This document shows, piece by piece, positions 22,919 to 45,289 of a DNA stretch of 64,000 bases. Position 1 is the first letter of the stretch; the number at the start of each line of letters is the position of its first letter. The DNA comes from Ostreococcus lucimarinus. Taxonomy: Eukaryota. The notes under the pieces were generated by a model. That model did not search any database, was not told where the DNA came from, and was given only the letters and a program-made list of their open reading frames with translations. The position numbers and the translations under genes were made by a program. The stretch lies in the NCBI GenBank assembly GCA_000092065.1, contig CP000587.1; one strand, given 5' to 3'.

Positions 22919-23429
22919 CGCGCGCGCCCGCGTCGCCGCGCGTCGCTCGCGCGCGTTTATCTCTCGCGCGTCGCGTCGAGACGTCGCGCTCGCGCGCGTC
23001 GCTCGCGCGGCGTCGCGCTCTCGCGTCGCGGCGTCGCGGGCGGAATTTGAATTCGCGTATCCGAATGTCCGAATACCGCACGCGCAGAATTTAATGCCTG
23101 TTTACCCATACACCACGCATCGTGAGCCAGTCACGCGCGCGCCTGGATTTAATGGACCTCCGACTGTTTGCGCACGCGCGCGCGCGCGCGCCCCGCGCGG
23201 GACGTCGGGACAACCGCCGCGTCGGCCGATCGCCGCACATCGACGCGCGACGCGCGAACGAGCGACGTCGGCGCGCGCGCGCGAGGACCGCGCGCGACGA
23301 ATCGACGCGCCCGAGCGACGGTAGACGTCGAACGAGACGCGCGCGGAACGACGACGCGCGCATTCCTTTGACGCGGGAAGAGGACGTTTTTGAAATTTAA
23401 ACGCGGCGCGACGCGGCGACGGCGGCGCG

Positions 23430-24950: not shown

Positions 24951-25002
24951 ATTCCTCACCTTGTGATGAATACCTTTTGTACCTCACTTCCGTCCGCTCG
25001 CC

Positions 25003-25305
25003 ATGGCATCATCCCGCGCCGCCGCGCCCCCGAGTGGAGAAAACGCGCAAGTGCGCCATCTCGGGCGCGGCAACCGCGTGCGCACGCCTACGCATCCGAC
25101 GAAGGGCGACTATTTGAGCATCAAGACCGAAGAAGTCATCTTCGGCATCTTGTTCGCGTTCATGGCGTGGAAACTGTGGCAGAGCGTGCGCGGTTTATTT
25201 AGATACTGGAAGTACGTGCGCGCGCCGAACGCGCCGGAGACAGAGCTCGAGGCAGGGGCGATCGCGTTCGAGGAAGATGACGATGAGAACGAAAAGATTG
25301 ATTGA
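25003..25305 (+). CDS. Hypothetical small single-pass membrane protein
   Basis: ORF 100 aa with ATG at 25003. It has one hydrophobic helix (VIFGILFAFMAWKLWQSV) and moderate GC3. It lies between two convergent genes. Confidence 0.25.
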   Translation: MASSRAAAPPSGENAQVRHLGRGNRVRTPTHPTKGDYLSIKTEEVIFGILFAFMAWKLWQSVRGLFRYWKYVRAPNAPETELEAGAIAFEEDDDENEKID

Positions 25306-25378
25306 TTGATGGAGCGGGAAGGGTGGGACGGGACGTCGCGTAGGAATTAGTGTGTTGTAGTGTATCTATCGGTTCGGT

Positions 25379-25383
25379 TTACA
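25379..25383 (-). promoter_or_regulatory. TGTAA motif (minus strand) immediately after the SMC6 stop
   Basis: Plus-strand ggtttacaaattt reads taaatttgtaaacc on the minus strand. Confidence 0.25.
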
Positions 25384-25386
25384 AAT

Positions 25387-28300
25387 TTAAGACGGACGAG
25401 CGGCGATCATCTTTTGCACTTTGACGTCTGGGTCGTCGGCGTTGATGGCGCTCAAATCCTGCGGCGTGATGAACAAAAACTGTTTGTTTGAGTGATTGTC
25501 GCTTCTCGCAAATTCAAGAAGCGTCTTCATAGATATTCTACGGTTCACGGCATCCATGAATACGTCGAACTCATCCATCGCTCGGAAAGGCGAGTCAGAT
25601 TCATCGCCAAGCGCGAGGTTGAACGCGAGCGTGGAATACGATCGTTCACCACCACTCAAGGCGCGAGTGTCTGTGATAGCTCTCGTGTTCGTGCCATCCT
25701 TGAGCTTGATGATCAACTGCGATTCCTCGTAGTTGACTTCAATTTGACCCGCTTGCCCTTTCGCTTGCATATGATAGTTGAATCTGTGCGATACGTTGGC
25801 GGCGGTCTGGCGCGCTTGTGTTACCATCGTCTCCCGGCGCTTTCTGACGCCCACTCTGAGCTTTTGGAAAATCTTCTTTGAGCTCTCCACACCGTGTTCG
25901 AGTTTGATGAGCTTTCGCTTTCGGTCCGATAATTCATCGTTCACTTCTTCGTATGGTCTCTTGTGTCGACTCTCTTCCTTCTTCATCGATTCTTTCGTCT
26001 TTTCGTACAAGCGTTGCAGCTGTGTCGGTAACAAAGTGATATCGCCTGCGTGCTCTGCGACTTCGCGGTCACAAATTTCTTTCTTCGTTTTGTCGGCCAG
26101 CTCTTCGCATTCCGTCTTCATCGCCTGTATACTAGTTTCGCAGTCTTCGATGAGATTATCTGCTTGTTGAAGCCGCTCCACGCAAGTTTCAACTTGTTTC
26201 TCTGCCTTTTGACGTTCCGAATCAATCTTCTGCATTGCTTTGGCGTATTGCTCCACTTCTGCCTTGTACGAATCGGCGAGTGAGAGTTTCTCATTGATGA
26301 CGTTCTCTGCAATATCATGTGCCTCTTTAGCTTGCGTGAAAGCGAATTCGGCTTCTTTAAGACTACTTTGATGCTTGGATAAGTCGACATTGAGGCTGTC
26401 GAGCTCCTCCTGGAGCGTACTCACGTCAACCCCAGTGCCGCTCGAGTCTTCGGCGTCAAGTTTCGCTTGCTGCAAATCACTGAACGCCTTCTGAGCGTTC
26501 TTATTGAGAGTACTGAATTCAGCTTCTTTTTTCTTGATCATATTCGCAATGTCCTTGACGGCTCGCATGCACGCAGCCTCGTCGTTGCTGAGCAATTTGA
26601 TTTCAGATTGCTTTTCCTTGACTCGATTTTCCATCGACGCAATCTGCGCTTTCGGATCCGTTCCGAGTCGTTGTGCTTGATTGTAGCTTTTGAAGGCTTC
26701 ATCTCGCACGACTTGACCTGTCATGAAGATTTTACGATGGAAAGTATACGCCACCGCGACTTGCTTTTGTTTCGCGGCGCCGGAATAGAACATGCCTCTC
26801 GCCTCGCGTTCGTCTTTCATGAGCACGGCTCGTTCGATGCCGGCGCTATCGACGAGGAAGTTGAAAACCACGTCGTGTTTGCATTCCAGGACACTTTCGA
26901 TGGACGTGAATTCGGTTTGATTGGGTACCTTTTCAACAGGGATGTTGTATCTTCCACGGTTGAAGTCGACGCTTTGAATGCTTAAATTGTTCATGCCACA
27001 TTCTTTGCTGATTTGGCGCAGCTTATCCATGTCTTTCGGGCTTGAGACCAAAAATGTCGTCATAGATTGACCGAGAGCTTCTTCAACCGGAACAATCCAA
27101 CTTTGATCTTTGAGAGTGACGTGCATACCGACGGGTCCAATTGGAGGCTTGGAAAACTCACCCAGTCGCCTTTGCACCGTGTCGACGAGTCGTGGCATTT
27201 GCTGTCCGAAAAGCACCAACCTGTTGCTTGACGTCTGCTTCAGAGTGGAGATATGCTTGCGAATGTCGTTGATCTCATTCTCAGCAAACTTCTTTTGTCG
27301 CGCGAAGTTACTCTGTGCTCGCTGTTTGTCTTCCTGTCCGGCCTTCAATTTCTCTATATCGCCCGAGCACGTCTCAATCTCAGCCTTGGCAGCCACGAGG
27401 TTCGAGCTCAGTTTTTGCAATCGCCTATCAGTCTCTGTCGTGTCGCCTCGCTGCGCCTCCAACGACCGTTGAATCTTTGACTCCGTGTCGGACACGCGCT
27501 TCGAAAGCTTCCGCACGCTCGTTTCCTCGCTCAGTTTATCCGTCTCGGCCTTTTGCAATTGTCGCCCCGCTTCTCTACGCTCATTCTCAGCCTGACGACG
27601 CTCCGCGCTAAGCTCTTGAAGCTTTCTACTGAAATCTTCTGACTGTCGCCCAAACTCTTCGTTGTCTATGGCCGCCTTTTCGAGCGTCGCTTGCGCGGTG
27701 CCAAGTTTGGCTTGAAGTTCCCCTCTCTTCTGCACATACACCTGTTGTGCCTCCTTTTCTTCTTCCAACTTCTTTTCCGCCTCGACCACCTTCGACCACG
27801 CCAGACGATTCCTAAAATCGATCGCCTTCGATCGTAGCTCTTGCACGCGCTCAAACGAATGGAGCTCGTGCGTCAATTCTGCCACTTCCTCTCTAAGTTT
27901 TGGAATCGTTTCCAAGTGCTCGTTCAGCACGTCCTTCATCTCGTTTGACTTATTCTTTGCAATCTCTTGCAGCTCCATCAAATCCGACAACAGCGTCGCA
28001 TCGATGAAAAACTGATACTTCTTAGTCGCATCACCGGTGTGCAAGAACTTCTTCGCCATGTCCTGCGTCATCACCGTGATGGGATTATCGACGTCGATGC
28101 AAAAGTGGTCCGCGAGCTTATTCAACTCGTCCACCCGCGTCCCGACCGTTTCCCCGCTCTCGCTCTTAATCTTCAGCGAATTCGCCCCCGTCGCGTTCAA
28201 CACCTTCTCAACCGTGATCGATCGTCCGAACACATCCGGTTTAAACGCATCCTCTCCATCGTTCGAGATCACGACGACGACGCGCGCGAAGCTCGCCCCC

Positions 28301-28569
28301 GTCTTGATCATCCCTTTCGCGCTCTTCGTGCTCGACCGTCCGATGGATTTCATCTTCGCCCCGAGCGCGACCGCCAACGCGGTCAAAATCGCGCTCTTCC
28401 CGCTCCCGTTCTCGCCCGTGACGTAATTGATTCGCGGTCCGAGCTCAACCTTTGCGTTCGCGTGGCACATGAAGTTGTGCATGGTGACGCGAACGAACGC
28501 CCCGGCGACGCCTGGGAAGTGCGTCGGGGGCTTCGTTTCGGCGCCCTTGCGCTCCGTCTTCGCCACCAT
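25387..28569 (-). CDS. SMC6: Structural maintenance of chromosomes protein 6 (SMC6)
   Basis: ORF 1060 aa with ATG at 28569. It has the N-terminal Walker A head (FMCHANAKVELGPRINYVTGENGSGKSAILTALAVALG), long coiled coils, a hinge, and a C-terminal signature and Walker B head (ALSGGERSYSTLAFNLALG...MDEFDVFMD). SMC6-specific spacing. Confidence 0.85.
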   Translation of the reverse strand: MVAKTERKGAETKPPTHFPGVAGAFVRVTMHNFMCHANAKVELGPRINYVTGENGSGKSAILTALAVALGAKMKSIGRSSTKSAKGMIKTGASFARVVVVISNDGEDAFKPDVFGRSITVEKVLNATGANSLKIKSESGETVGTRVDELNKLADHFCIDVDNPITVMTQDMAKKFLHTGDATKKYQFFIDATLLSDLMELQEIAKNKSNEMKDVLNEHLETIPKLREEVAELTHELHSFERVQELRSKAIDFRNRLAWSKVVEAEKKLEEEKEAQQVYVQKRGELQAKLGTAQATLEKAAIDNEEFGRQSEDFSRKLQELSAERRQAENERREAGRQLQKAETDKLSEETSVRKLSKRVSDTESKIQRSLEAQRGDTTETDRRLQKLSSNLVAAKAEIETCSGDIEKLKAGQEDKQRAQSNFARQKKFAENEINDIRKHISTLKQTSSNRLVLFGQQMPRLVDTVQRRLGEFSKPPIGPVGMHVTLKDQSWIVPVEEALGQSMTTFLVSSPKDMDKLRQISKECGMNNLSIQSVDFNRGRYNIPVEKVPNQTEFTSIESVLECKHDVVFNFLVDSAGIERAVLMKDEREARGMFYSGAAKQKQVAVAYTFHRKIFMTGQVVRDEAFKSYNQAQRLGTDPKAQIASMENRVKEKQSEIKLLSNDEAACMRAVKDIANMIKKKEAEFSTLNKNAQKAFSDLQQAKLDAEDSSGTGVDVSTLQEELDSLNVDLSKHQSSLKEAEFAFTQAKEAHDIAENVINEKLSLADSYKAEVEQYAKAMQKIDSERQKAEKQVETCVERLQQADNLIEDCETSIQAMKTECEELADKTKKEICDREVAEHAGDITLLPTQLQRLYEKTKESMKKEESRHKRPYEEVNDELSDRKRKLIKLEHGVESSKKIFQKLRVGVRKRRETMVTQARQTAANVSHRFNYHMQAKGQAGQIEVNYEESQLIIKLKDGTNTRAITDTRALSGGERSYSTLAFNLALGDESDSPFRAMDEFDVFMDAVNRRISMKTLLEFARSDNHSNKQFLFITPQDLSAINADDPDVKVQKMIAARPS

Positions 28570-28694
28570 CGCGCTTCTCTTCGCTCGCGTCGCGTCTCAC
28601 GACGTTCGCGGCGCCGCGCGCGGCGCGATGGCGTCGTCCGTCGCCGGCTGTCGAAATTTGAATCGCGTCGACGCGCGCCGCACACGGCGTCGCG
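28570..28694. promoter_or_regulatory. Divergent promoter region between SMC6 (minus) and the CDP-alcohol phosphotransferase (plus), 125 bp
   Basis: Head-to-head ATG codons at 28569 and 28695. Confidence 0.35.
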
Positions 28695-29924
28695 ATGCTC
28701 GATTACGTGCGGCGCTCGCGCTTGCACCTCGTCACCGGCGGACACGACGCCGCGGAGGAGACGCCGTGCGCGCACTGCGCGCGCGGGCGCCACGTCGGCG
28801 CGAACGCGCGACGGTGCGCGCAGGTGCGCGCGTACGCGTACTCGAGCCCGAACCTGTCGCTGTGCGAACGACTGTTCCTGAACGCGTTCTGGGACGGCGC
28901 GGTGCGGCGATCGTGCCCGACGTGGATCGCGCCGAACCTCATGACCGCGCTCGGGCTGCTCGCGATCGCGGTGGCGTACGCGCTGATTTGGACGCTGAGC
29001 CCGAATTTAGCCTTCGAGGCGCCGCGGTGGACGTACGCGGCGTGCGCGGCGTTGGCGTTCGCGTATCAAACCGCGGATGGGATGGATGGGAAACAGGCGC
29101 GAAGGACGAAATCTGGATCGCCGTTGGGTGAGGTGGTGGATCACGCGTGCGACGCGCTGTCGATGTGCATTTATCCGTTGATAGTGATGGATATCTTTGG
29201 CGTCGGGCATCGCTCGCGAGACGCTCGGGCGATTTGTACGACTATGATGATGACGGGAAGGGCGATGTTTGTGGTCGATACCGTGTCGTCGACGTTTACC
29301 GGGGTGTTACCCGTGAGCGAATTTTTGGATTCGCAGGAGATTCAGCTCATTTGTCAGACGTTGATGCTTTGCGTGGCGTTTTCGGGATCGAACGCGTTCT
29401 TGTACGCGCCGGTCACCGTCCCGTTCGTGGGCGCAACCACGCTCGGACGCGCGGGCGCGGTGTTTTGCATCACCACGGGCGCGATCTCGCGCGTGGGGAC
29501 GTTCGTTAACACCGTGCTGAAAGCGAACAAAAAAGAGGCGCCGCCACATTGGCCGGCGTATAGGAAGCCGCTTAGCATCGCGGCGAGGTGCGCTCTCGTT
29601 GAAGCGTTTCACGGACTTTGCCTGTACAAGGCGAAGAATTTCGCGTACGCGCACGCGACGAGCTCTATCTTATTCGGCGAGTCGGAAGCGCGCATCATGA
29701 GCATTCGCGTGTCCGATCCCGACTTCCCAGTCACGAACTGGTTAGCTTTGTTCATCATGGCGCTCACGACTGTCGTTCCCGAGGGCGACGCCTTCGTGAG
29801 CGGCATGCTCATGGGCGCCGCCCTCTTCATGCTGCTTCATCGAGGGTCGTGTTTGGCGGCGCAAATCACGGGATGCTTAGGCATGCATCCAAACATTTTT
29901 ATCATCAGGCCGAGAGATGCATAG
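28695..29924 (+). CDS. CDP-alcohol phosphotransferase (choline/ethanolamine phosphotransferase, AAPT/EPT type)
   Basis: ATG at 28695. YAYSSPNLSLCERLFLNAFWDGAVRRSCPTWIAPNLMTALG aligns to the AAPT N-terminus. The CDP-alcohol motif is DGMDGKQARRTKSGSPLGEVVDHACD, and multiple TM helices follow. Confidence 0.85.
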   Translation: MLDYVRRSRLHLVTGGHDAAEETPCAHCARGRHVGANARRCAQVRAYAYSSPNLSLCERLFLNAFWDGAVRRSCPTWIAPNLMTALGLLAIAVAYALIWTLSPNLAFEAPRWTYAACAALAFAYQTADGMDGKQARRTKSGSPLGEVVDHACDALSMCIYPLIVMDIFGVGHRSRDARAICTTMMMTGRAMFVVDTVSSTFTGVLPVSEFLDSQEIQLICQTLMLCVAFSGSNAFLYAPVTVPFVGATTLGRAGAVFCITTGAISRVGTFVNTVLKANKKEAPPHWPAYRKPLSIAARCALVEAFHGLCLYKAKNFAYAHATSSILFGESEARIMSIRVSDPDFPVTNWLALFIMALTTVVPEGDAFVSGMLMGAALFMLLHRGSCLAAQITGCLGMHPNIFIIRPRDA

Positions 29925-29972
29925 CTTTGTAGATGAATCGAATTCGATTAATTAAAACTTTGTCGCGTTAAA

Positions 29973-30980
29973 TTAAACACGCTCGCATTCGAGAAGGCGG
30001 GAGAAGTAGAAGGACGTCGCGGTCATTTCGCGGCGCTTCACCTTGAAACCGGCAGCCTTGAGCGCGATTTCAACATCAGCTTCGTCGTGGAGGTACGCGC
30101 GGGTCGCCTTGGACGGTCCCGGGAACAACTCGCCGACGCGCTTCAAGATGAGGTACGCCAACGTCTTCGGCGCGAAGGAGATGATGAGCTTCTTGCTGCT
30201 CAAGCTCGCCAAGTGGTTGATCATACCGTCGACGCGGTCCTTCGGGTAGTGAATCATGACATCGATGCACGTCACCATGTCGTACTTGCCCGTGGCTTCT
30301 TCGAGGCCCATGGCGTCAAACTTGGGCTCGGTCGCCGGCGCCTTGGCGCCGTTCGCCACCAATTCCTTGTATCGGCGCTCCGCTTCGCCGACCATCGAGC
30401 TAGAGATATCACTCGCGCTCACGTTCGCCCCCTGAAGCGCCAACGGAATCGCCAACGACCCCGTCCCGCACCCAGCATCGCACACCGTCACGCCCTCCAA
30501 ATCGTCGTTCTTCACCCACGCCAAAACCTTATCAACCGTTTGTTGATGTCCCTCGCGAATGTCGAGCTGCACCTTATTCACGTCCTCCGTCTCTCCGTAA
30601 ATCTTATTCCACCGTTCGAACCCGGTGGTGTCGAAATAATTCTTCACGCTCGCCGCTTCGTCGCCGCCAGTCTCCGCCATCATCCCCTCGCGTCTTTTGC
30701 TCGGATCCGTCAGCACCAACGCCGCGCCCGCGCCCGCGATCGCCAGCGCGCCGCCGATCGCCAGTCCCGCGCCCTCGGCCGTCTGCGCGATCTCGCTCGC
30801 GCTCGCCGCGCTCGCGCCGAGCGCGCCGAGCGCCGCCGTCACCGCGGGCGCCGTCGTCATCGCCGACGCCTTATCGCGCGCGCGCGCCATCGTCGTCGTC
30901 TTCGCGCGCGGTTTCGTCGCGCGCGCGCGAGGGGCGACGCGCGCGCGCGGGCGGCTCGTCATCGCTCGCGTCGCGCGCAT
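29973..30980 (-). CDS. CHLM: Magnesium-protoporphyrin IX methyltransferase (chlorophyll biosynthesis)
   Basis: ORF 335 aa with ATG at 30980. There is strong identity across the whole ChlM catalytic region (FDTTGFERWNKIYGETEDVNKVQLDIREGHQQTVDKVLAWV...VCDAGCGTGSLAIPLA...MVTCIDVMIHYP). The N-terminus is an A/R/T-rich transit peptide. Confidence 0.9.
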   Translation of the reverse strand: MRATRAMTSRPRARVAPRARATKPRAKTTTMARARDKASAMTTAPAVTAALGALGASAASASEIAQTAEGAGLAIGGALAIAGAGAALVLTDPSKRREGMMAETGGDEAASVKNYFDTTGFERWNKIYGETEDVNKVQLDIREGHQQTVDKVLAWVKNDDLEGVTVCDAGCGTGSLAIPLALQGANVSASDISSSMVGEAERRYKELVANGAKAPATEPKFDAMGLEEATGKYDMVTCIDVMIHYPKDRVDGMINHLASLSSKKLIISFAPKTLAYLILKRVGELFPGPSKATRAYLHDEADVEIALKAAGFKVKRREMTATSFYFSRLLECERV

Positions 30981-31166
30981 CGTGTCGCGTAAAACGCGCG
31001 CTCGCGTGTGCGGCGCGCGCGCGGTGACGCGAACGATGACGAAAGGCGATCGCGTCGAGGGCCGCTTTGAGATCTTTATCCATCCGGTCGGTTACGGAGA
31101 ATTGCCGAATCGAGGCGCCCGATTGTCGCGACGCCGCGCCGTCGTCACTCTCGCGCGCGCGTCGCC
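30981..31166. promoter_or_regulatory. Divergent promoter region between ChlM (minus) and POLD4 (plus), 186 bp
   Basis: Head-to-head ATG codons at 30980 and 31167. Confidence 0.35.
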
Positions 31167-31601
31167 ATGCCGCCTCGAAGCGCGCGACGACCGCCCTCGG
31201 CGACGACGATCGACGCGCTGTTCAGGTCGACGAAACCGGGCGCGGCGAGACCGGGCAAGACGAAAGGTGCGCCGCCGACGTCGGGATTTCCGACGCGCGC
31301 GCATCGCCGTCGTTCGACGCGACTGACGACGCGCGCGCGCGCAGGCGCGAACGTCGCGATCGAGGACGACGACGCCGAGACGATCGACGACGACGACGCG
31401 GTCGAGCGCGACGCGCGCGAGCTGAAGACGTTTGACTTGACGTCCAAGTTTGGGCCGTGCTGCGGATTGACGCGAATCGAGCGATGGGATCGCGCGCGCG
31501 CGCTCGGTTTAGACCCGCCGAAGCGCGTGTTAGAGATTCTGCATCGTCGCGGCGAGGCGAGCGCGCGATGGAGAGAGTGCGTGTGGCACGGACGGGTGTG
31601 A
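31167..31601 (+). CDS. POLD4: DNA polymerase delta subunit 4 (p12)
   Basis: ATG at 31167. The C-terminus LKTFDLTSKFGPCCGLTRIERWDRARALGLDPPKRVLEILHRRGEASARWRECVWH aligns residue by residue to human POLD4 (LRQFDLAWQYGPCTGITRLQRWCRAKQMGLEPPPEVWQVL...CSLWH). Confidence 0.8.
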   Translation: MPPRSARRPPSATTIDALFRSTKPGAARPGKTKGAPPTSGFPTRAHRRRSTRLTTRARAGANVAIEDDDAETIDDDDAVERDARELKTFDLTSKFGPCCGLTRIERWDRARALGLDPPKRVLEILHRRGEASARWRECVWHGRV

Positions 31602-31835
31602 GCGAGAGCGAGGGACGCCCCGGCGTCGAGCGGCGGCGGTGCCGGGTATCGCGACGACGCGATCGAACCGCCGATCGGTCGTCGCGACGACGAGCGCGAC
31701 GATTGAATTGTAAGATACGAAGATGGATTGACGCGATCTCGCCGTTCGCGCCGCGCTCGCGAGGTTTCGCGTCGACCGCCCTCGGCGTCCTATCCGTCCG
31801 CAGACGCCGCCTCGGCTCGGCGCTCTCGCGCGACC

Positions 31836-33362
31836 ATGCTCGCCCCGCTCGCGCCTCGCGACGCGCATCCGCCGTGGTTCTTGGCGTTATTGGTGCTCCT
31901 CAACGTCGTCGACGCGTTTCACCTGAACATCGTGTGGCCGATGCTTCCGTTCGCCGTGCGAGACTTTGGCGTCGCCGAAATCGACGTCGGCTTTTACTGC
32001 GGCGTGATAGGCGCCGCCGCGCCGCTGGGCGCGCTGCTCAGCGCGTATCAGTGGGGAAGAATCTCTGACAGATACGGACGACGCCCGGCGCTGATCGCCG
32101 GGAGCGCGCTGAGCACGATGAGCGTGTTCGTGTTCGGGACGGCGAAGAGCGTCCGCGCCGCGGCGCTCGGCCGCTGGATGTCCGGGCTTCTCAACGGGAA
32201 CGCCGCCATCGTGAAGACGTATTTGGGCGAAACGTCCACGAAAAAGGCGCAGAGCGAAGCTTTCGGAGTTCTGGCGTTCGGTTACGGGTTGGCGTCGACG
32301 TTAGCGCCGGCCGCGGCGGGATTTTTACAAAGGCCCGCGCGTCGTTGGCCAGAGACGTTCGCGGGGACGGCGTTCGATACGTATCCGTATCTCCTGCCGA
32401 TGTGCGTCGCGGCGTGCCTGACGGGACTCGGGGCGGTATTAGGGGTGTTATTGTTACCCGAAACAGCGTCGTTCGTGCGACGCGCCGAGGCTAAGGCGAT
32501 GGCGCGAAACGGCGACGAGGAAAAGCGTCTCGTCAAGTTGGCTTCGGCGGGCGACTTGCGAGCGATAGAGTTGCGCGACGTGGACGAGTGGTCGGACGTC
32601 GCCGGTGACAAGGGTGAATCTGACGACGTCGAAGATGTGGCACCGAAAGAAGTCCTATTCACGCCCGAGACGACTCGCGCTGTCGCGTGCTACGCCGTCC
32701 TCGCCGCCATCGCGATCGGGTACGACGAGATGCTTCCGGTGTTCTTAAAGACCTCGCACGAGTTAGGAGGGTGCGAATTCGCGCCGCGAGATATCGGTAT
32801 TTTGTTGGTGTGCGGTGGTGTCACGCTTTTGGTCTTTCAATTGGTGTTGTATCCGCGAATCGCCGACGCGCTCGGCGCCGTGCGCGCATTCAGATTCGGC
32901 GTCGCGCTCTTCGCCGCCGTGTCCATGCTCGCGCCGTTCGCGTCGGTGATGCCGAACGAACCCATGCTGTGGACAGTCGCACTCGTGTCGCAGTGCACGA
33001 AAATTTGCGCATTGGGGATCGGATTCGTAAGTATCACCATCGTGGTGAATAACTCGTGCGAGGACGCCGTCAAAGCTCGCGTGAACGGCATCGCTGGCAC
33101 CACGTCGGCGTTTGCGCGCATCGTCGCCCCAGTCATTTGCGGCTGGACATTTGCCGGCGCCATGCGATTGACTTTTCCGGCGCGGCAATTCCTTCCATTC
33201 GCCTTCATCTGCGCCGTCACGGTCGCGCTTCGCGTCATCGCCGAACGCCTGCCGACGGCGCTGGACAGCCCCACATCGTCCGTCGCCGACGTCGATACTC
33301 TTCCATCCGACGACCCCGCGCCCGTCGCGCCCGTCGCATCAAATTTAGATTCGCCCTGTTAG
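31836..33362 (+). CDS. Major facilitator superfamily transporter
   Basis: ORF from 31728, with the plausible ATG at 31836 (MLAPLAPRDAHPPWFLALLVLLNVV). It has the MFS signature GRISDRYGRRPALIAGSALSTMSVFVFG and 12 predicted TM segments. Confidence 0.75.
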   Translation: MLAPLAPRDAHPPWFLALLVLLNVVDAFHLNIVWPMLPFAVRDFGVAEIDVGFYCGVIGAAAPLGALLSAYQWGRISDRYGRRPALIAGSALSTMSVFVFGTAKSVRAAALGRWMSGLLNGNAAIVKTYLGETSTKKAQSEAFGVLAFGYGLASTLAPAAAGFLQRPARRWPETFAGTAFDTYPYLLPMCVAACLTGLGAVLGVLLLPETASFVRRAEAKAMARNGDEEKRLVKLASAGDLRAIELRDVDEWSDVAGDKGESDDVEDVAPKEVLFTPETTRAVACYAVLAAIAIGYDEMLPVFLKTSHELGGCEFAPRDIGILLVCGGVTLLVFQLVLYPRIADALGAVRAFRFGVALFAAVSMLAPFASVMPNEPMLWTVALVSQCTKICALGIGFVSITIVVNNSCEDAVKARVNGIAGTTSAFARIVAPVICGWTFAGAMRLTFPARQFLPFAFICAVTVALRVIAERLPTALDSPTSSVADVDTLPSDDPAPVAPVASNLDSPC

Positions 33363-33497
33363 TCACGTAGTGTTGTAGTGTGTAGTTGCGTTTGCGTTTG
33401 CGTTTCCGCGCCGCCGCCGCCGCCGCCGCGCTCGACTTCACGACTTCGCGACTTCGACGCGCGCCACCTCGCCGCACACCTCGCCTCGTCCGCGGCG

Positions 33498-35051
33498 ATG
33501 CGCGACGACGACGCGACGTTCGACGTCGCGTACGACGTCGCGCGAACCGCGTCGTGGATCCGCGACGGCGCGTTCTCGCGCGTCGCCCTGCAGTTACCCG
33601 ACGACAAGCTTCCCGACGCCGCCAGGCTCGCGCGCGCGCTTCAAACCGCGCTCGCGCGCGACGACGACGCCGCGCGAGCGTCGCGCGAGGTCTTCGTCCT
33701 CGCGGACACGACGTTCGGGTCGTGCTGCGTCGACGAAGTCGCGGCGGCGCACCGGGACGCCGACGCCATCGTACACTTCGGACGCGCGTGCTGCTCACCG
33801 ACGAGCCGAACGCCGGCGCGGTTGGTGTTCGATCGTAAAGAAATCGATTGCGCTCGATGCGCGCGCGCGCTCGAGGCGCACGCCGCGGCGTCGGCGAGGC
33901 GCGGGGCGCGCGCGGTGGTGGCGCTGTGCGACCAGGAATACTTTTGGGCGCTCGACGAGTTGAAGCGAGCTTCGACGAGCTCGACCGCGAACGTTCAGGG
34001 CGCGGAGATCTTCATCGCGGACGCGGTTGAGGTCGAAGTCGATCCGAGCCGCGATTCGAGAGTGCGAGGGAGGGATGAGGACGCGTCGACGACGCGAGTC
34101 GGCGCGTCGCGATTTCGACCGCCGAATGGGACGACGAACGAGGATTGCGCGTACGTGTGGATCGGTGCGACGGGGCCGGCGATGACGCATGCGATGCTGG
34201 TTTTGGGCGATTGCGCGGCGAAGTTCGGTGGGATGGCGCAGTACGATCCATCGGTGGATGGCGACGCGGTGCGCGTCGAGGCGGACGGCGCCGGCGAAGC
34301 CGCGAGGGCGTTGAAGCGAAGGAGATTCTTGATAGCGAAGGCCAAGGAAGCCAGGGTGGTTGGCATCATCGCCGGTACTTTAGGTGTCGCGGGTTACCGC
34401 GAAATGATCGAAAACTTGCGCAAGTTGATTGCGAATAGTGGGCGTAAGAGTTACACCGTCGTCGCGGGAAAGCCGAATCCGCAAAAGTTGGCCAACTTCC
34501 CCGAGATTGAGGTCTTCATAATGGTGAGCTGCGAGTTGACGGCGTTGATGGACGGGCGCGATTACATGCAACCGATCATAACCCCGTACGAGGCCACGAT
34601 CGCGTTCACGCCGGGAAAGATGTGGATGGGCGAAGTCAAGCTCGATTTCGCGTCGGTGCCGACGTTCGAAGACGTCGTCGCGAATGGCGACGACGACGAC
34701 GACGTTCAACCAGAGTTCAGCCTCGTTTCTGGCACGTACATATCACCGGTGAACGCCTCGTCGTCCGCGCACGACGCCGACGACATCGACGCCCTCACCG
34801 GCACCGAGCTCGCTCGCCGCGCCGAGGGCGCGCTCTCCCTCCGCGCCTCCGGCGTCTCCGACGCCGTCGTCACCTCCGGCGCCGAATACCTCATCTCCAA
34901 GCGCACGTACACCGGTCTCGAGCCCGGCCCGAAGCGCGACGACGAAACGGGCGCCATCGCGGACGCCCCGCTCGAAGCCGCGCGCGGTCTCTCCGGCCGC
35001 GCCAAATCGTACGCCGACGAGTCGCCCGCGTCCGCCGCCACCGACCCCTAG
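33498..35051 (+). CDS. DPH2: Diphthamide biosynthesis protein 2 (DPH1/DPH2 family)
   Basis: ORF from 33378, with ATG at 33498 (MRDDDATFDVAYDVARTASWI). The matches are FSRVALQLPDD...VFVLADTTFGSCCVDEVAA...DAIVHFGRACCS and RVVGIIAGTLGVAGYREMIENLRKLIANSGRKSYTVVAGKPNPQKLANFPEIEVFIMVSC, which aligns to human DPH2 (ARVVGLLAGTLGVAQHREALAHLRNLTQAAGKRSYVLALGRPTPAKLANFPEVDVFVLLAC). Confidence 0.8.
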   Translation: MRDDDATFDVAYDVARTASWIRDGAFSRVALQLPDDKLPDAARLARALQTALARDDDAARASREVFVLADTTFGSCCVDEVAAAHRDADAIVHFGRACCSPTSRTPARLVFDRKEIDCARCARALEAHAAASARRGARAVVALCDQEYFWALDELKRASTSSTANVQGAEIFIADAVEVEVDPSRDSRVRGRDEDASTTRVGASRFRPPNGTTNEDCAYVWIGATGPAMTHAMLVLGDCAAKFGGMAQYDPSVDGDAVRVEADGAGEAARALKRRRFLIAKAKEARVVGIIAGTLGVAGYREMIENLRKLIANSGRKSYTVVAGKPNPQKLANFPEIEVFIMVSCELTALMDGRDYMQPIITPYEATIAFTPGKMWMGEVKLDFASVPTFEDVVANGDDDDDVQPEFSLVSGTYISPVNASSSAHDADDIDALTGTELARRAEGALSLRASGVSDAVVTSGAEYLISKRTYTGLEPGPKRDDETGAIADAPLEAARGLSGRAKSYADESPASAATDP

Positions 35052-35277
35052 CCCTCCGAGCGCGTTCCGACGCCCGCGCGTCGTTAAACCATCCCATCAT
35101 CCCATCGTCCCGTCATCGCGCGTTCCGAAGCGCGTTTCCCGCGTTCGCCCGTTCCCGCGTCTCCGCGCGTCCGCGTTGACCGTCCCGCTCGCGCCGACGC
35201 CTCTCATCCATCGTCGTCCGTCCGTCCCCCACACGCGCGCGCGCCGTCACCGCTCGAACTCACCGCGCGCTCCTTCG

Positions 35278-36072
35278 ATGTCCGCGCCCTCCGCGCCGAC
35301 GACGGACGTCCCGCCGCCTCCCGCGTCCGCGCGCGCGCCCGCCGACGCCGCCGCGCCGACCTCGACGGCGGCGGTTGACTCGACGCCCGCGACCGCGCCG
35401 CGCGCCGAGTCGACGCCCGCGCGCCCCGTGACGCTCGGTCCCGTGACGTTCGACACCGGCGACGACGTGATGCGATACTTCGGCGCGCTTCGAAACGAGC
35501 TGACGCTGGATCAAAACATGAACGAGTACGAAGCCGCGACGACGGAGGCGCTGCTGCGACTCGGCCACGAGGACGCGGCGAAGAAATTCGGCAGCGGCCT
35601 GCGCGCGTTCCAGGTCAGGAATCATCCCGTGCACAACACGCGATGCTTCATGATCGTGCGCACCGACGGGACGATGGAGGACTTTTCGTATCGAAAGTGC
35701 GCGGCGCGGTTGTTTCCGGGATACGACCCGGCGACGTTTCGCGAAAAGACGGGCGCCGCGCGAAGCGGCGGCGGTCGCGGTGGTCGCGGCGGTGGTGGGC
35801 GCGGCGGTGGGCGCGGTGCTCGCGGCGGTGGTCGCGGCGGTGGTCGCGGCGGTGGTCGCGGCGGTGGTCGCGGCGGTGGTCGCGGCGGTCGCGGCGGTCG
35901 CGGCGGCGGCCGCGGGAATTTCGGCCGCGGCGGCGGTCGCGGCGGCGGCCGCGGGAATTCCGGTCGCGGCGGCGGTCGAGGCGGTCCCGATCGCGGCGGC
36001 GATCGTTTCGGCGGCGGCGCCGATCGCGGCGGCGGCGGCGGCGACCGACCGCGGTTCGGCCGTCCGTATTAG
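35278..36072 (+). CDS. DCL (DUF3223) domain protein with a long C-terminal RGG/GAR repeat
   Basis: ORF from 35176, with ATG at 35278. The N-domain GDDVMRYFGALRNELTLDQNMNEYEAATTEALLRLGHEDAAKKFGSGLRAFQVRNHPVHNTRCFMIVRTDGTMEDFSYRKC matches DCL proteins (CLFLVRTDDVWIDFSYRKC). A C-terminal 95-aa run of GGRGG repeats is encoded by a 15-nt tandem repeat. Confidence 0.6.
   Translation: MSAPSAPTTDVPPPPASARAPADAAAPTSTAAVDSTPATAPRAESTPARPVTLGPVTFDTGDDVMRYFGALRNELTLDQNMNEYEAATTEALLRLGHEDAAKKFGSGLRAFQVRNHPVHNTRCFMIVRTDGTMEDFSYRKCAARLFPGYDPATFREKTGAARSGGGRGGRGGGGRGGGRGARGGGRGGGRGGGRGGGRGGGRGGRGGRGGGRGNFGRGGGRGGGRGNSGRGGGRGGPDRGGDRFGGGADRGGGGGDRPRFGRPY
35770..36060 (+). repeat. Coding tandem repeat of a 15-nt unit (GGCGGTGGTCGCGGC-like) encoding the RGG/GAR box
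   Basis: Repeated ggtcgcggcggtggtcgcggc units are visible over about 290 nt inside the DCL-domain gene. Confidence 0.85.
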
Positions 36073-36307
36073 ACTTCGTCGCGACTTCGACGCGAAGACG
36101 ACGCCGCGATTGTTGATTGATGATGCATGATCGATGACCTCGCGCCTCACATCGCCGCGCGTTTCGCGACTTCGATCGCGAGCGGCGCGTCGCATCGCGC
36201 TCGCCGCGCGCGCTCGCGACGCGCTCGCGACGCGCCGGTGAATCGATTCGATCGCGACCGGGACAATCCGCGTCAGCACTGCGCGCTCGAAATCGCTCGC
36301 GACGACC

Positions 36308-37804
36308 ATGGTCGCGCGCGACGTCGTCGCCAAGGCGGCGCGCTCGCAGCTCGTGAAAACCGCGGGCGCGAAACTGCTCGACGCGCGACCGAAGATGATC
36401 GCGCTGAGCGGACCGGGAGGCTTCCTGGGCGCGCGGGTGCTGGACGCGGTGCTGGACGCGCACGATTATCGACGAGCGCACGGATTAGAGAGCGGCGAGG
36501 CGCTGCTGCTGTCGGCGTCGCCGGGCAATTTGATGTCGAGATTGACGAAACAGTACGGGGCGGAGCGATTGCGAGGGGTCAGGGCGTCGAGGGTGGATTA
36601 TTATTATCAACACGACGTGGATTCGTGGCAGGACCAGTTGGGGTCGCTCGGGATGGCGGGGTGTAACTCGGTGTTCATGAATCTCGCCGGTCTCGCGGGG
36701 CCGGTGTCGGGGAAGGCGAACGCGATGATGGCGGTGAATTATCTCGCGCCGGTCGCCGCGGCGCGCGCGTGCGAACGATTGGGTTTCGGGCACTTTATTC
36801 AGAGCAGCACGCAAGCCACGAAGGCGGAGCGCGCGGGACAGGTGCCGTACAGTCGGTGGAAGGCGATGGCAGACTTTTCGTTGGCGCGGTTGGAAAAATT
36901 GCCGGTGACGGTGTGCGCGCTCGGAATGTTGTACGATAAAGACCAAGGCGTCGTCGGTCAGCGTGGGGACTTACTGAATATGATTGACTTGACGCTCCTA
37001 CCGCTGACGCCGATTATGGGCGACGGTTCGGCGCCGCTGCAGCCGCTCGAGGTCGCGGACGCGGCGAGTCGGTTGGCGTTTCTGGGTCTCACTGAGGTTG
37101 CGGACCTACCCGCGTCGAATCTACCGTGTCAGGAAGAGGGCGCGTGGAATCGAGAATCGTGGTCGGGCACCGATTCCATTTGGAGTCGCGAATCTTGGGC
37201 GCGCATAGTGACGCAGAATGAAAAGCGGCAGTACACGCTGCGCATGTACGACGCCGTGGGTCCGGAGACGATGAGCATGCTCGAACTTAACAAAAAGTTC
37301 GCCCAATTGAACAATCGAAAGCTTCGAGCGGTGCACGTGGACTACCGCAACTTTGAGCGCGTGCTGAACGTCGCGTCGCTCGGGAACTTGAATAGACAAT
37401 TCGTATCGCTCTTGCGAAGCGAGCAAGACGCCGAACACCCAGTCGTTGGGAATTCGGATGCTTTTGAGAAAATACTCGGCCCCGACGCCAAGCTCTGCGC
37501 GCTCGGTGATCTCGATCGAGTCACACAGCGGCGCCGATTCCCGTACTCGGCCACGCTCGGATGGGCGATGCACAACTACGGCGTCATCTGGCCCGGTATT
37601 CTCCTCGGCACAGAAATTCTCGTCACCTACCTATTCGGTCAAAAATACTCCACGGATGACTACTGGAAGTACACTCGTCTGAGTTTCAAAGCCGTCTTCC
37701 TCGCGTGCGTCGTCGGCGGTGGAACGTACTTTGGCGGCGAATCGGCGACTCATCTCCTCGAACTCGTTCGCAACACGCTTCCGCCGCCTCCGCCGTCACC
37801 GTGA
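36308..37804 (+). CDS. NAD(P)-binding Rossmann-fold protein (epimerase/dehydratase-like) with a C-terminal hydrophobic region
   Basis: ATG at 36308. It has a glycine-rich dinucleotide motif (IALSGPGGFLGARVLDAVL) and a C-terminal segment YGVIWPGILLGTEILVTYLF. I cannot assign a specific family. Confidence 0.5.
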   Translation: MVARDVVAKAARSQLVKTAGAKLLDARPKMIALSGPGGFLGARVLDAVLDAHDYRRAHGLESGEALLLSASPGNLMSRLTKQYGAERLRGVRASRVDYYYQHDVDSWQDQLGSLGMAGCNSVFMNLAGLAGPVSGKANAMMAVNYLAPVAAARACERLGFGHFIQSSTQATKAERAGQVPYSRWKAMADFSLARLEKLPVTVCALGMLYDKDQGVVGQRGDLLNMIDLTLLPLTPIMGDGSAPLQPLEVADAASRLAFLGLTEVADLPASNLPCQEEGAWNRESWSGTDSIWSRESWARIVTQNEKRQYTLRMYDAVGPETMSMLELNKKFAQLNNRKLRAVHVDYRNFERVLNVASLGNLNRQFVSLLRSEQDAEHPVVGNSDAFEKILGPDAKLCALGDLDRVTQRRRFPYSATLGWAMHNYGVIWPGILLGTEILVTYLFGQKYSTDDYWKYTRLSFKAVFLACVVGGGTYFGGESATHLLELVRNTLPPPPPSP

Positions 37805-37883
37805 TTCAACCATTCCATCACGCCGCATCGCTTGTTGTACGCTTGTTGTAAAATATCATTCTTCATCGTTCGCACGACGCTCG

Positions 37884-37935
37884 TCGGCTCGAATCCGAAT
37901 CGAATCGAGTTCGAGTTCGCCTTCGCCTTCGCCGA
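37884..37935. repeat. Cascade of short tandem duplications (GAATC x3, GAGTTC x2, GCCTTC x2) in the NSE1 5' flank
   Basis: gaatccgaatcgaatcgagttcgagttcgccttcgccttcgcc, read directly. Confidence 0.6.
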
Positions 37936-38011
37936 AATTCAATTTTTGAAAACCGCCAGCCGACGCCACCTCGCGGCATTTCTCGCCGCACCGCCGCGCG
38001 CGCCCGGCGTC

Positions 38012-38861
38012 ATGCCCCCGGCGGCGGCGGCGAAGAGGAAAGCAAAACCACTCGCGGCGACCTCGCCGTCGCCCGTGAAGAAAAATGCCAAGACCACGGC
38101 GCCCGCGGCGTCGAACGACGACGCCAGCGCGCTGTCGGTGCAGCAGCAGTGTTTCCTTCAGGCGCTTCTGTCGCGCGGGATCGTCGAAAGCGAGGACGCG
38201 GAGGCGTTGTACAGGTGCGGTCGTGTCGCACACGCGCGATTTCGACGATGAAGCGCGAAAAGAAGGCGCTCGCGGGACTGACAAATGAGCGTCGATCGCA
38301 CGCGCGGCGCGCAGAGAAATCGTCGAAGACGACGCCGCGAACGAGTTCACGCGATTCTGGGGCGAAATCGCCGTCGCGTTGAAATTTTTAGATTTAGACA
38401 TACGAACGGGTAAATTCGAGGGCGATGGGAAGACGTACATGGCGGTGGTGAACCAAGGGACGACGGAAGTGGCGAAATTGGCGACTCGGATGACGCCGGC
38501 GGAAATCGCGCTGTTTCGAGTCGCGATGTTGGAAATTCTGCGCGATGATTCGAGCGCCGAGCGCGGGATCGATTTCATGAGCGCGTTGAATTCGACCGAG
38601 TTACAATTGACGCAAGACGCGTCGACGCAGGACGGGGCGACGCAGATGACGCAACTGGAGAAGCAAACGCAGACGGTGCAAAAGATGAGCAAGGTCGTCA
38701 AGGACGCCGCGCTCAACGACCTCGTCGCCGAGCGATGGCTCGAGCGCGTCGACGACGGCCGTCGTCTGACCCTCGGTCCTCGATCATTCCTAGAGCTCAG
38801 AGAATTCATCCTAGCCCAAGCTCCCGAGCGCGCGCGCGCGAGGTGGGATAAATTGTTGTGA
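38012..38861 (+). CDS. NSE1: Non-SMC element 1 (NSE1) winged-helix region of the SMC5/6 complex, 2 exons with an intron at 38215..38314, no RING-like domain
   Basis: Exon 1 (38012..38214) ends ...QQQCFLQALLSRGIVESEDAEALY. Exon 2 (38315..38861) reads R-EIVEDDAANEFTRFWGEIAVALKFLDLDIRTGKFEGDGKTYMAVVNQGTTEVAKLATRMTPAEIALFRVAMLEIL...RLTLGPRSFLELREFILAQAPERA. It aligns with human NSMCE1 (HRRFLQLLMTHGVLEEWDVKRL...LEDFINNINSVLESLYIEIKRGVTEDDGRPIYALVNLATT...FTLHGRAILEMEQYIRETYPDAV). The donor is GTGCGG, ACTGAC is at 38277..38282 and the acceptor is CAG. The stop comes where the RING-like domain would begin. Confidence 0.6.
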
Positions 38862-38946
38862 CTTGTGACGAACCGTCCGCCGTCCTCGCCCTCGCGCGTC
38901 CCGCGCCGCCCCACATCGCGTCGCGCCGTCGCGCGTCGCGCGCGCG

Positions 38947-40125
38947 ATGTCTCACGCGCGCGGTTCCATGCTCGCGTGCGCCGACGCACCGTCGACGACG
39001 GCGTCCGCGTCGCTCGACGCGCCGCCGCCGCCCGAGCGCGTCGTTCGCGACGGCGACCTCGTCGTCGTCGTCGAGGGCTTCAACGCCGCCGTCGCCGAGC
39101 GCGTGCGAAGCGGCGGCGTGTACGCGTCCAAGTACGGGACGTTTCACCACGACGATTGGATCGGGCGCGCGTTCGGCGCGCGCGCGCGCGAGCGGGACGG
39201 GAGAGGGTTCGTGTGGCTGTGCGCGCCGACGCCCGAGTTGTGGACGAAGGTGCTGGAACATCGCACGCAAATCCTGTACGCGGCGGACATATCGCTGGTG
39301 TGCGCGGAGATGGAACTGACGCCGGGGAGCGTGGTGATGGAGAGCGGGACGGGGTCGGGAAGCCTGACGCACGCGCTGGCGCGGTGCGTCGCGCCGACGG
39401 GACGAGTGTGGACGTACGAGTTCAACGAAACGCGCGTGAAAGCGGCAAAGGAAGAGTTCGCGCTGAATGGGATATCGGAGTACGTCACCGTGACGCACAG
39501 AGACATCGAACGGGATGGATTCCCGAAGGAGATGGCGGGACGCGCGGACGCGGTTTTTTTGGACTTGCCGGGGCCGCACAAGTGCGTGGGGAGCGTCGCG
39601 CGTAGTCTTCGCCCGGACGGCGTGCTCTGTTCGTTTTCGCCGTGCATCGAACAGGTGCAGAAAACTATTTTAGAGATGAAAAAGCACGGGTTTGCGGACG
39701 TCAAGACGGTGGAGTTGTTGGGGCGCGAATACGACGTCGAGGGAAAGCGGTTGCAGAGAGACTTGTCGGCGCCGCTGAGCAAGGCGACCAAGGTGGGATG
39801 GCGGAAGGACACTAAGCGCCCGCGTGACGCGCCGGTGGACGATGGCGACGACAACGTAATGACGCAGCACGTCGTCACATTTCCGCGACAGCGCCTGCAG
39901 TCGCACACGGCGTACCTGACGTTTGCCCGTCTCGTGCCCGAGCCCGAAGGTTGGGCGAAGACGCTCGCCGAGCGCTCGAAGAATGGCGTGGGTGGAGACT
40001 TGTTAGCGCGCGCGGCGGAGGTGTTGCAGAGGAATCGACGCAGTGGGCGCGACAGTCCAGCGCCACGGGCACCGAAAGCGCCGAACAAAAACATGCTCTC
40101 CAACCCGGGCGAGTACTCCGATTAG
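38947..40125 (+). CDS. TRM61: tRNA (adenine58-N1)-methyltransferase catalytic subunit
   Basis: ATG at 38947. There is identity to TRMT61A along the full length (WLCAPTPELWTKVLEHRTQILYAADISLVCAEMELTPGSVVMESGTGSGSLTHALARCVAPTGRVWTYEF...CSFSPCIEQVQKT...GYLTFAR). Confidence 0.85.
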   Translation: MSHARGSMLACADAPSTTASASLDAPPPPERVVRDGDLVVVVEGFNAAVAERVRSGGVYASKYGTFHHDDWIGRAFGARARERDGRGFVWLCAPTPELWTKVLEHRTQILYAADISLVCAEMELTPGSVVMESGTGSGSLTHALARCVAPTGRVWTYEFNETRVKAAKEEFALNGISEYVTVTHRDIERDGFPKEMAGRADAVFLDLPGPHKCVGSVARSLRPDGVLCSFSPCIEQVQKTILEMKKHGFADVKTVELLGREYDVEGKRLQRDLSAPLSKATKVGWRKDTKRPRDAPVDDGDDNVMTQHVVTFPRQRLQSHTAYLTFARLVPEPEGWAKTLAERSKNGVGGDLLARAAEVLQRNRRSGRDSPAPRAPKAPNKNMLSNPGEYSD

Positions 40126-40198
40126 TCGCTCTAGCGAGCTTTGCTATCGATAGAACTAAACCTTGCTATGCGCTACGCATACATGTAGCAAATATACG

Positions 40199-40990
40199 CT
40201 ATTTCTTCGCGTTCCTACCGCTCGACCCCATCCACGGCGCGAAAAACGCGTTTTGCACCCCCCACACGACGTCTTGCGTCTCCACGAACGCGTCTATCAC
40301 GGCGCCCCGTCCGTCGCCCGTCGACAGCCGTTTCGCCGCCGCCGCCCCCGCCGCGGGCACCGCCGCCAGCAAAGTCGGTCCCACCGACAGCGCCAACGCT
40401 GCGCGTTGTCCTAAATCCAGCTCAACCGGCTCGTACGTCTCCAACGCGTCCAAACGCGCGATCCACGCCTCGTCCAGACCGTGAAACCGCGCGCCTTCCC
40501 GCAGGAGCGTCGCGTATCGCAGCGACGGCGCTCGTTCGCCAAAATTCTTCAGCGTACGATGCGTCAGCGTCTTGCATCGCAGCTTTCGCCCATCGTACGC
40601 GTCGCAATCGACGTCCACGACGTCGTACGACCCTTCCGTGGTGACTAAGTACTCCCACTCGTCGCGCGTGATGCCGTGCGCGACGCCGTGGCACTCGGCC
40701 CCCTCGCGCGCGACCGCGCTCGCGAACGCCGGTTCGACGTACGGCACGCCGGGCACGTTGAACGCGAGCTCGAAGCCGCGCAGGACGCACGGCGTGGACG
40801 ACGTCGGGCGCATGCCGCGAACGCCGTCGAACGTGCTGGGATTGAGATTGCTGCCGTAGCAGAAGTAAAGAACGTCCGCGCCGCTCGACGACGCGCGCGC
40901 GGACGCGCGCGCGGACGACGGCGGTGTCGTCGATCGCGCGGCGCGCGGCGCGGGCGCGGCGCGCGGCGCGGGCGCGGCGGTGGCGAACAT
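40199..40990 (-). CDS. Gamma-glutamylcyclotransferase / AIG2-like protein
   Basis: ORF 263 aa with ATG at 40990. It has the LYFCYGSNLNPSTF N-terminal motif and the downstream acidic TTEGSYDVV, as in the GGCT fold. Confidence 0.65.
   Translation of the reverse strand: MFATAAPAPRAAPAPRAARSTTPPSSARASARASSSGADVLYFCYGSNLNPSTFDGVRGMRPTSSTPCVLRGFELAFNVPGVPYVEPAFASAVAREGAECHGVAHGITRDEWEYLVTTEGSYDVVDVDCDAYDGRKLRCKTLTHRTLKNFGERAPSLRYATLLREGARFHGLDEAWIARLDALETYEPVELDLGQRAALALSVGPTLLAAVPAAGAAAAKRLSTGDGRGAVIDAFVETQDVVWGVQNAFFAPWMGSSGRNAKK

Positions 40991-43385: not shown

Positions 43386-43416
<31 letters not shown>

Positions 43417-43875: not shown

Positions 43876-45289
<1,414 letters not shown>

Follow-up and report, generated by a model that had tools for sequence, protein, structure and literature searches.

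Introduction

In other organisms, the SMC5/6 subunit NSE1 partners NSE3 through its winged-helix domains, which keep the NSE4 kleisin in place at the heads of SMC5 and SMC6. Canonical Nse1, or NSMCE1 (human, Xenopus, Schizosaccharomyces pombe, Saccharomyces cerevisiae, and Arabidopsis), is composed of a tandem winged-helix kite, which is matched over its full length by PF07574, a linker helix after winged-helix B, and a C4HC3 variant RING (vRING, PF08746). It was reported that in S. pombe the vRING stabilises the Nse1/3/4 trimer and provides Ubc13/Mms2-dependent ubiquitin-ligase (E3) activity (PMC8750328), and the domain is treated as a standard part of Nse1 (PMC8750328, PMC10954462, PMC5441860). 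Relative to archaeal kites, the RING has been regarded as a eukaryotic innovation gained by Nse1 (bioRxiv 10.1101/2024.01.07.573240), and evolutionary surveys of SMC complexes record whether Nse1 is present and leave its domain content aside. Here, we describe the NSE1 gene found in a stretch of 64,000 nucleotides from the green alga Ostreococcus lucimarinus (contig CP000587.1, assembly GCA_000092065.1; hereafter the window), for which a naturally RING-less architecture is strongly supported by sequence comparison.

The algal protein resembles canonical Nse1 in its tandem winged-helix kite, in its full-length PF07574 match, and in the linker helix after winged-helix B ('FLELREFIL' in the alga, 'ILEMEQYIRETYP' in human), but where the canonical proteins have the vRING it ends in a helical tail of 20 residues that includes a Trp close to the C-terminus. 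Its nearest RING-bearing relatives in a winged-helix tree are the streptophyte proteins of Chlorokybus atmophyticus (P0104) and Zea mays (P0121), which share the 'G.RSF.EL' motif and, unlike any named chlorophyte, continue to a complete C4HC3 RING ending in C-x2-C-x3-W. Nse3/MAGE and the prokaryotic kites (ScpB, MukE, and JetB) are likewise RING-less tandem winged-helix partners of kleisins, whereas the algal NSE1 is by sequence clearly an Nse1 orthologue; in domain content, it is back to the plain kite architecture. No description of a RING-less algal Nse1 was found in the full-text literature on the Nse1 RING and Ostreococcus, Chlamydomonas, or algae, and the architecture is presumably visible in public domain databases.

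NSE1 Gene Model and Identity

The window has a G+C content of about 63% and its genes are densely packed. The NSE1 gene model is as follows:

38012..38861, plus strand: whole NSE1 gene, with one 100-nt intron, encoding 249 amino acids
38012..38214, plus strand: exon 1, with the ATG at 38012, encoding residues 1-67 and two bases of codon 68
38215..38314, plus strand: intron of 100 nt, GT..AG
38315..38861, plus strand: exon 2, encoding the remaining part of winged-helix A, winged-helix B, and the tail, with the TGA stop at 38859-38861

Exon 1 encodes a basic low-complexity N-terminus followed by the start of winged-helix A. Splicing out 38215..38314 gives one unbroken match to the Pfam family PF07574 (SMC_Nse1) over residues 46-229, covering profile positions 2-194 of 194 with an expectation value (E) of 3e-39 and 135.4 bits (cut-off 23.3). 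The stop falls 20 residues past the end of this match, and no other Pfam family was found at E ≤ 1, PF08746 (Nse1 RING-like) being unmatched. In the annotated NSE1 of Ostreococcus tauri, a span of 846 nt for 241 amino acids implies an intron of about 120 nt.

When NSE1 was compared by phmmer with the sequences of the PDB, human and Xenopus NSE1 were recovered at E of about 3e-10. The residues 'QQCFLQALLSRG' align to the N-terminus of both, and residues 189-240, '...LTLGPRSFLELREFILAQAPER', align to human '...FTLHGRAILEMEQYIRETYPDA'. Past that alignment, nine residues (ARARWDKLL) are left in the alga, at the point where human NSE1 runs on into the C4HC3 RING. The initial annotation, which placed the algal stop where the human RING begins, was correct to within about ten residues, the human alignment reaching residue 240 of 249. 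The closest named matches are the annotated Nse1 proteins of O. tauri, with which the window protein is 72% identical, and of other green algae.

An AlphaFold model of NSE1, made with a 50-sequence alignment, has a mean predicted local distance difference test score (pLDDT) of 85.9 and a predicted template modelling score of 0.77. Its best Foldseek match in the PDB is the Nse1 chain 7dg2_A (E 3.6e-10, template modelling scores 0.59/0.63), followed by the Nse1 chain 5hvq_C (E 3.4e-9) and then yeast Nse1; other kites (JetABC, MukE, Nse3, and ScpB) appear among the lower-scoring matches. With a full-length profile match, a superposable fold, and grouping with the Nse1 of its relatives, 38012..38861 is, on sequence and modelled structure, a true Nse1 orthologue whose tandem winged-helix kite fold is predicted to be intact.

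Metagenome gene callers mis-model NSE1 homologues at the 5′ end (P0001-P0008 and P0010), the 3′ end being unaffected. The 192-aa models begin at an ATG within the intron ('MRIDRR...'), and P0010, of 276 aa, looks like a call on this gene in which the intron was retained.

Absence of the RING at the Locus

The end of NSE1 and the region beyond it contain the following features:

38799..38858, plus strand: C-terminal tail of NSE1, REFILAQAPERARARWDKLL, residues 230-249 (20 residues), sitting where the RING-like domain would be
38862..38946: spacer of 85 nt between the NSE1 stop and the TRM61 ATG, too small for a RING exon
38947..40125, plus strand: TRM61/GCD14 tRNA m1A58 methyltransferase subunit (PF08704, E 1.2e-85, profile positions 1-246 of 247)

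The 249 residues of NSE1 include a single Cys, C47, towards the N-terminal end of the winged-helix region; the tail is Cys-free, and the C4HC3 zinc ligands expected after winged-helix B are absent. TRM61 had been thought to lie too close for a RING exon, and the 85 nt between stop codon and ATG bear this out. A spliced downstream exon, which the initial annotation had left conceivable, was looked for and not found in this spacer or by further scans: regular-expression searches in six frames of the 64-kb window and of five NSE1 loci (L001-L005) gave no C4HC3, C3HC4, or C3H2C3 finger, and a RING profile hidden Markov model (HMM) built from 47 Nse1 RING segments gave nothing significant on stop-to-stop frames of the same sequences (best E 0.33). 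As a positive control, this HMM detects 57 of the 228 collected homologues.

Comparison with orthologues, which had been proposed as a check, showed that the sister species are without a contiguous RING. Nine Mamiellales loci of distinct lineages share the aligned position of the stop codon, which is TGA, TAA, or TAG, and the read-through sequences past it are unrelated among the nine; that of the window is Arg/Pro-rich, with no Cys. The gene that follows also varies, being TRM61 in Ostreococcus species and a low-GC relative, and either ribosomal protein S16 or, after a 1-kb gap, Sec1 in GC-rich relatives. In a collection of 5.8 billion proteins, all of the 81 close homologues (81/81) have PF07574 alone and end in '...LG.R.FLEL+.F.L..APE.....W....*'.

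It might be argued that the RING is only seemingly missing, either because a downstream exon was overlooked or because the stop is read through or recoded. The stop in the window is a TGA and so potentially leaky, and many of the database homologues are automated calls on metagenome contigs, some of them (the 192-aa models) visibly wrong at the 5′ end. Read-through or recoding of the TGA is nevertheless ruled out by the TAA or TAG found at the aligned stop in other lineages and by the Cys-free, unconserved read-through frames, and a missed 3′ exon is ruled out by the 85-nt spacer together with the negative regular-expression and HMM scans of the 64 kb and the five loci. In addition, transcript-derived open reading frames (ORFs), namely an MMETSP ORF in the Dunaliella salina cluster and Neomeris Trinity ORFs, end at the same place, and the tail is conserved up to the stop, with a Trp exactly five residues from the C-terminus (W-x4-stop) in 43 of the 57 RING-less clusters described below. 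Since the same-codon stop occurs as TGA, TAA, and TAG, no RING lies in the frames, and the spacer is short, gene-model error, read-through, and a missed exon were rejected, and a hidden RING is considered extremely improbable.

Distribution of the RING-less Form in Green Algae

With a profile made from eight Mamiellales sequences as the query, 687 matches at E ≤ 1e-3 were obtained among 1.84 billion cluster representatives. Classification was carried out on the best 150 of the 687, whose top ranks are mostly RING-less forms, and 147 new sequences were classed. RING-less proteins with a complete tail, ending 15-26 residues (nearly all 18-23) after G.R.FLEL, account for 57 of the 147, RING-carrying proteins for another 57, and fragments or unclear cases for 33. 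The named RING-less members belong to five classes:

Mamiellophyceae: Ostreococcus tauri
Pedinophyceae: Pedinophyceae sp. YPF-701
Trebouxiophyceae: Chlorella sorokiniana and Chlorella sp. A99
Ulvophyceae: Neomeris dumetosa
Chlorophyceae: Monoraphidium, Scenedesmus, Dunaliella salina, Edaphochlamys debaryana, Pleodorina starrii, and Chlamydomonas eustigma

The named matches that bear a RING are Chlorokybus atmophyticus, which diverged early among streptophytes, Zea mays (PF07574 and PF08746), and Blastocladiella, a fungus. A search with a 50-sequence Nse1 alignment gave, among the matches listed, Edaphochlamys debaryana and Zea mays as new named members, the others being mostly the same Mamiellales. 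Several of the RING-less members come from transcript assemblies and have the same end point, including the Neomeris Trinity ORFs, and the MMETSP ORF in the Dunaliella salina cluster, which is marked 'type:complete', stops at the same place.

As judged from these sequences, the RING-less architecture is common to every named chlorophyte found, in five classes, and not to streptophytes. The initial annotation had allowed for a RING-less NSE1 in the lineage of the window; the lack of a RING holds, and it is not peculiar to that lineage. A neighbour-joining tree, made without support values from winged-helix columns only (tail and RING removed), places the RING-less forms in one cluster, which adjoins the RING-bearing cluster of streptophytes. 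Since all named chlorophytes are RING-less and streptophytes have kept the RING, the domain was most likely lost a single time on the stem of the chlorophytes, once they had separated from streptophytes; this is the simplest reading of the distribution.

A pseudogene, or a subunit of a decaying complex, was also considered and ruled out, the gene being conserved from Mamiellophyceae to Chlorophyceae, evidently under constraint, and SMC6 being intact.

The Conserved C-Terminal Tail

The tail is kept in all Mamiellales homologues, and an equivalent form occurs in the 57 representative clusters. In the AlphaFold model, it forms two helices (residues 230-236 and 239-248) in a block with pLDDT 94-96. 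The near-terminal Trp of the window protein is W245, encoded at 38844..38846. A Trp is also found in RING-bearing Nse1, at position +4 after the last Cys pair (C-x2-C-x3-W), in 44 of 48 sequences.

On the other flank, Chlorokybus and plants have an 'LD(I/L)P' linker just ahead of the first Cys pair of the RING, and the tails of core chlorophytes have a similar 'LDLP', with the variants 'FDLP' in Scenedesmus and 'LQLP' in Dunaliella. The linker is not shared by Mamiellales, which, including the NSE1 of the window, have 'QAPE' at this position. The arrangement suggests, as a hypothesis, that the zinc-binding core may have been excised in frame, with both flanks (the linker and the post-RING Trp) kept. 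When a tail HMM was run on artificial versions of RING-bearing proteins, the 'deleted' form scored 13.0 bits and the 'truncated' form 12.2 overall, a slight gap that does not discriminate between the two; in a 14-protein subset, the score was 11.1 bits versus 10.6 for a downstream-shifted control.

SMC6 and the Gene Neighbourhood

A second SMC5/6 gene lies in the same window:

25387..28569, minus strand: SMC6, a single exon and ORF of 1060 amino acids

Its translation contains a Walker A motif (GENGSGKS), a signature motif (LSGGE), and a Walker B motif (DEFDVFMD), which were read directly. In phmmer comparisons with the PDB, its match to human SMC6 has an E of 8e-98 over residues 19-1044; yeast SMC6 is matched at about 2e-73, the S. 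pombe SMC6 hinge at 8e-18, and SMC5 far more weakly (E 8e-23 to 3e-11). The product is identified as SMC6 by its SMC architecture and by its better match to SMC6 than to SMC5. The window contains no NSE3 or NSE4 gene; with SMC6 intact beside NSE1, the SMC5/6 complex appears to be retained.

Copies of the SMC6 protein that are 100% identical occur on many marine and estuarine metagenome contigs (L012-L015 and L090-L095; 630 index blocks), the source of which is an abundant Ostreococcus-like species. The G+C content of the window dips to 0.50-0.54 at 24001..28000 and at 54001..58000, versus about 0.63 elsewhere. The first dip coincides with SMC6, where it is probably caused by the Lys/Glu-rich composition of the coiled coil, and the second with a gene for a 1562-aa AAA_16 ATPase with TPR (53827..58515, minus strand).

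The initial annotation had described SMC6 and NSE1 as components of one complex about 10 kb apart. Both are real SMC5/6 genes, as seen from the human SMC6 match and the PF07574 match given above (E 8e-98 and 3e-39, respectively), and the distance is 9.4 kb (28569 to 38012). The interval contains the following:

28695..37804, both strands: seven unrelated genes, namely CDP-alcohol phosphatidyltransferase, Mg-protoporphyrin methyltransferase, DNA polymerase delta subunit 4 (POLD4), an MFS transporter, a diphthamide synthesis protein, DUF3223, and a 498-aa protein without a Pfam match

The linkage was screened by tblastn of 78 metagenome loci around SMC6 homologues. An old microsynteny block, composed of the diphthamide-synthesis gene, Mg-protoporphyrin methyltransferase, CDP-OH transferase, SMC6, and a Myb/U-box gene, is common to Ostreococcus clades and Bathycoccus-like contigs (GC 0.45-0.50), and GC-rich Micromonas-like contigs retain only the CDP-OH transferase and SMC6 of it. 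NSE1-TRM61 is a second conserved pair, present in O. tauri, other Ostreococcus contigs, and the low-GC relative. The order of NSE1, TRM61/GCD14, and an opposite-strand AIG2/GGACT-like gene (38012..40990; L001, L006, L008, and L010) is kept as far as a relative of 41.5% GC, with spacers of about 85-250 bp, and this microsynteny predates the linkage to SMC6. Apart from the window species, the two blocks adjoin in a single Ostreococcus-like lineage (L029/L034), where SMC6 and NSE1 are 7.9 kb apart.

In O. tauri and another Ostreococcus contig, the 10 kb upstream of NSE1 has no called SMC6, and none lies within 10 kb of NSE1 in the GC-rich relatives (L002-L005) or the low-GC relative (L010/L011); likewise, NSE1 is missing from the 10 kb upstream of SMC6 in three Bathycoccus-like loci (L057, L081, and L085). 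Functional clustering or co-regulation of SMC5/6 subunits could be read into two subunits of one complex lying 9.4 kb apart, into the same arrangement in L029/L034, whose SMC6 is only 50% identical, and into the presence of further replication and repair genes nearby (the BRCT protein, POLD4, and RPA3). Yet seven unrelated genes on both strands intervene, and the linkage is missing from all of the GC-rich, low-GC, and Bathycoccus-like loci just listed. By a rough estimate, for 6-8 subunits spread over about 13 Mb of genome the chance of some pair lying within 10 kb is 2-4%, which is unremarkable over hundreds of complexes. Clustering for function is accordingly given very little credence. The linkage, which the initial annotation had already allowed to be chance, is a local gene order in Ostreococcus-like lineages with no sign of functional meaning, and it carries no weight comparable to that of the NSE1 architecture.

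Two further observations concern this neighbourhood. A mechanosensitive-channel gene of about 800 aa lies between Mg-protoporphyrin methyltransferase and POLD4 in O. tauri (L001, 700..3132) and in another Ostreococcus (L006, 1..2383), and the matching site of the window, 30980..31167, has no such gene. In addition, by a plain count, replication, repair, and cell-cycle genes are locally concentrated among the about 40 genes of 16472..45289, with the following besides SMC6 and NSE1:

16472..18370, minus strand: APC8/Cdc23
19745..22918, minus strand: BRCT-repeat protein of 1057 aa
31167..31601, plus strand: DNA polymerase delta subunit 4
44966..45289, plus strand: RPA3

Proposed Function of RING-less NSE1

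It is considered very probable that the window encodes a naturally RING-less NSE1 orthologue, with a helical tail in place of the RING, that the RING was lost once on the chlorophyte stem, and that the nearby SMC6 reflects local gene order. Briefly, the NSE1 of the window keeps its two winged-helix kite domains and has the C4HC3 vRING replaced by a conserved helical tail of about 20 residues. The protein would still pair with NSE3 and clamp the NSE4 kleisin at the SMC5/6 heads, and the tail may take over the trimer-stabilising role that the RING has in fission yeast. Chlorophyte SMC5/6 would then be without a built-in NSE1 ubiquitin ligase, and the Ubc13/Mms2-dependent E3 activity would be gone. 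On the best reading of sequence and model, NSE1 would be a purely structural kite subunit.

Going by the yeast work (PMC8750328), the E3 activity of NSE1 is expected to be absent because the domain that binds the ubiquitin-conjugating enzyme (E2) is missing. A loss of ligase activity had been put forward in the initial annotation as the consequence of a RING-less NSE1; the absence of the RING is confirmed, and the loss of activity is what we infer from it. The wider claim, that all Chlorophyta run SMC5/6 without an NSE1 vRING ligase and that the zinc-binding core was lost once, perhaps by an in-frame excision that left a 20-residue helical cap, is favoured with distinctly less assurance.

Several points weigh against the single loss and the structural role proposed here. 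The RING-positive sequence of Blastocladiella sits inside the RING-less cluster of the neighbour-joining tree, which is crude and has no support values. Most of the RING-less clusters are unnamed metagenome or transcriptome sequences, and no match could be assigned to Prasinodermophyta or to several of the prasinophyte classes, which bears on the exact node of the loss. That NSE1 binds NSE3 and NSE4 and that it lacks ligase activity are both predictions. Finally, the RING scans covered the window and five loci, and a separate RING protein or a docking E3 may be encoded elsewhere in the genome.

The last point leads to the alternative in which the ligase function is kept in trans, either because the RING has become a separate gene, as the initial annotation had suggested, or because another E3 is recruited to SMC5/6. 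The vRING is both structural and catalytic elsewhere (PMC8750328), and a complete loss of activity would be notable. Against this alternative, scans of the window and of five NSE1 loci (L001-L005) gave no RING-like sequence. One candidate adjoins SMC6:

23430..24950, plus strand: Myb/SANT and U-box protein of 506 aa, tail-to-tail with SMC6 (Myb, E 2.9e-7)

Its C-terminal U-box is borderline (E 3.9e-4), at 21.0 bits under the Pfam threshold of 21.4. Several Ostreococcus clades and Bathycoccus-like contigs retain the adjacency of this convergent gene to SMC6; the GC-rich Micromonas-like contigs did not show it. Compact genomes such as these often have conserved neighbours, and the CDP-alcohol phosphatidyltransferase, which is unconnected to SMC5/6, adjoins SMC6 still more widely; nothing ties the Myb/U-box protein to SMC5/6. 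The occurrence of a putative E3 beside SMC6 where NSE1 is RING-less is probably a coincidence, and retention of the ligase in trans is on the whole thought unlikely.

Significance

The literature treats the NSE1 RING as a universal feature of SMC5/6, and chlorophytes depart from it. For this group, it would be wrong to recognise NSE1 in surveys by its RING or to take E3 activity for granted because a protein is an orthologue. What is described is a phylum-wide domain loss in a well-studied complex, not a new mechanism, and it would be of interest to specialists in SMC5/6.

The role of the RING has been hard to dissect because its deletion in yeast also destabilises the Nse1/3/4 trimer (PMC8750328). 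A phylum in which the RING has been swapped for a short conserved tail, with SMC6 and the rest of NSE1 kept, would represent a natural separation-of-function experiment, and on this reading about 20 residues suffice for the structural role. Whether NSE1-dependent ubiquitination is dispensable in these algae, or is carried out by something else, becomes a testable question in Chlamydomonas and Ostreococcus. If the proposed reading is true, RING catalysis would be dispensable, or would have moved to an unlinked E3, in a major eukaryotic lineage, and Chlamydomonas and Ostreococcus would serve as natural 'RING-delete' systems.

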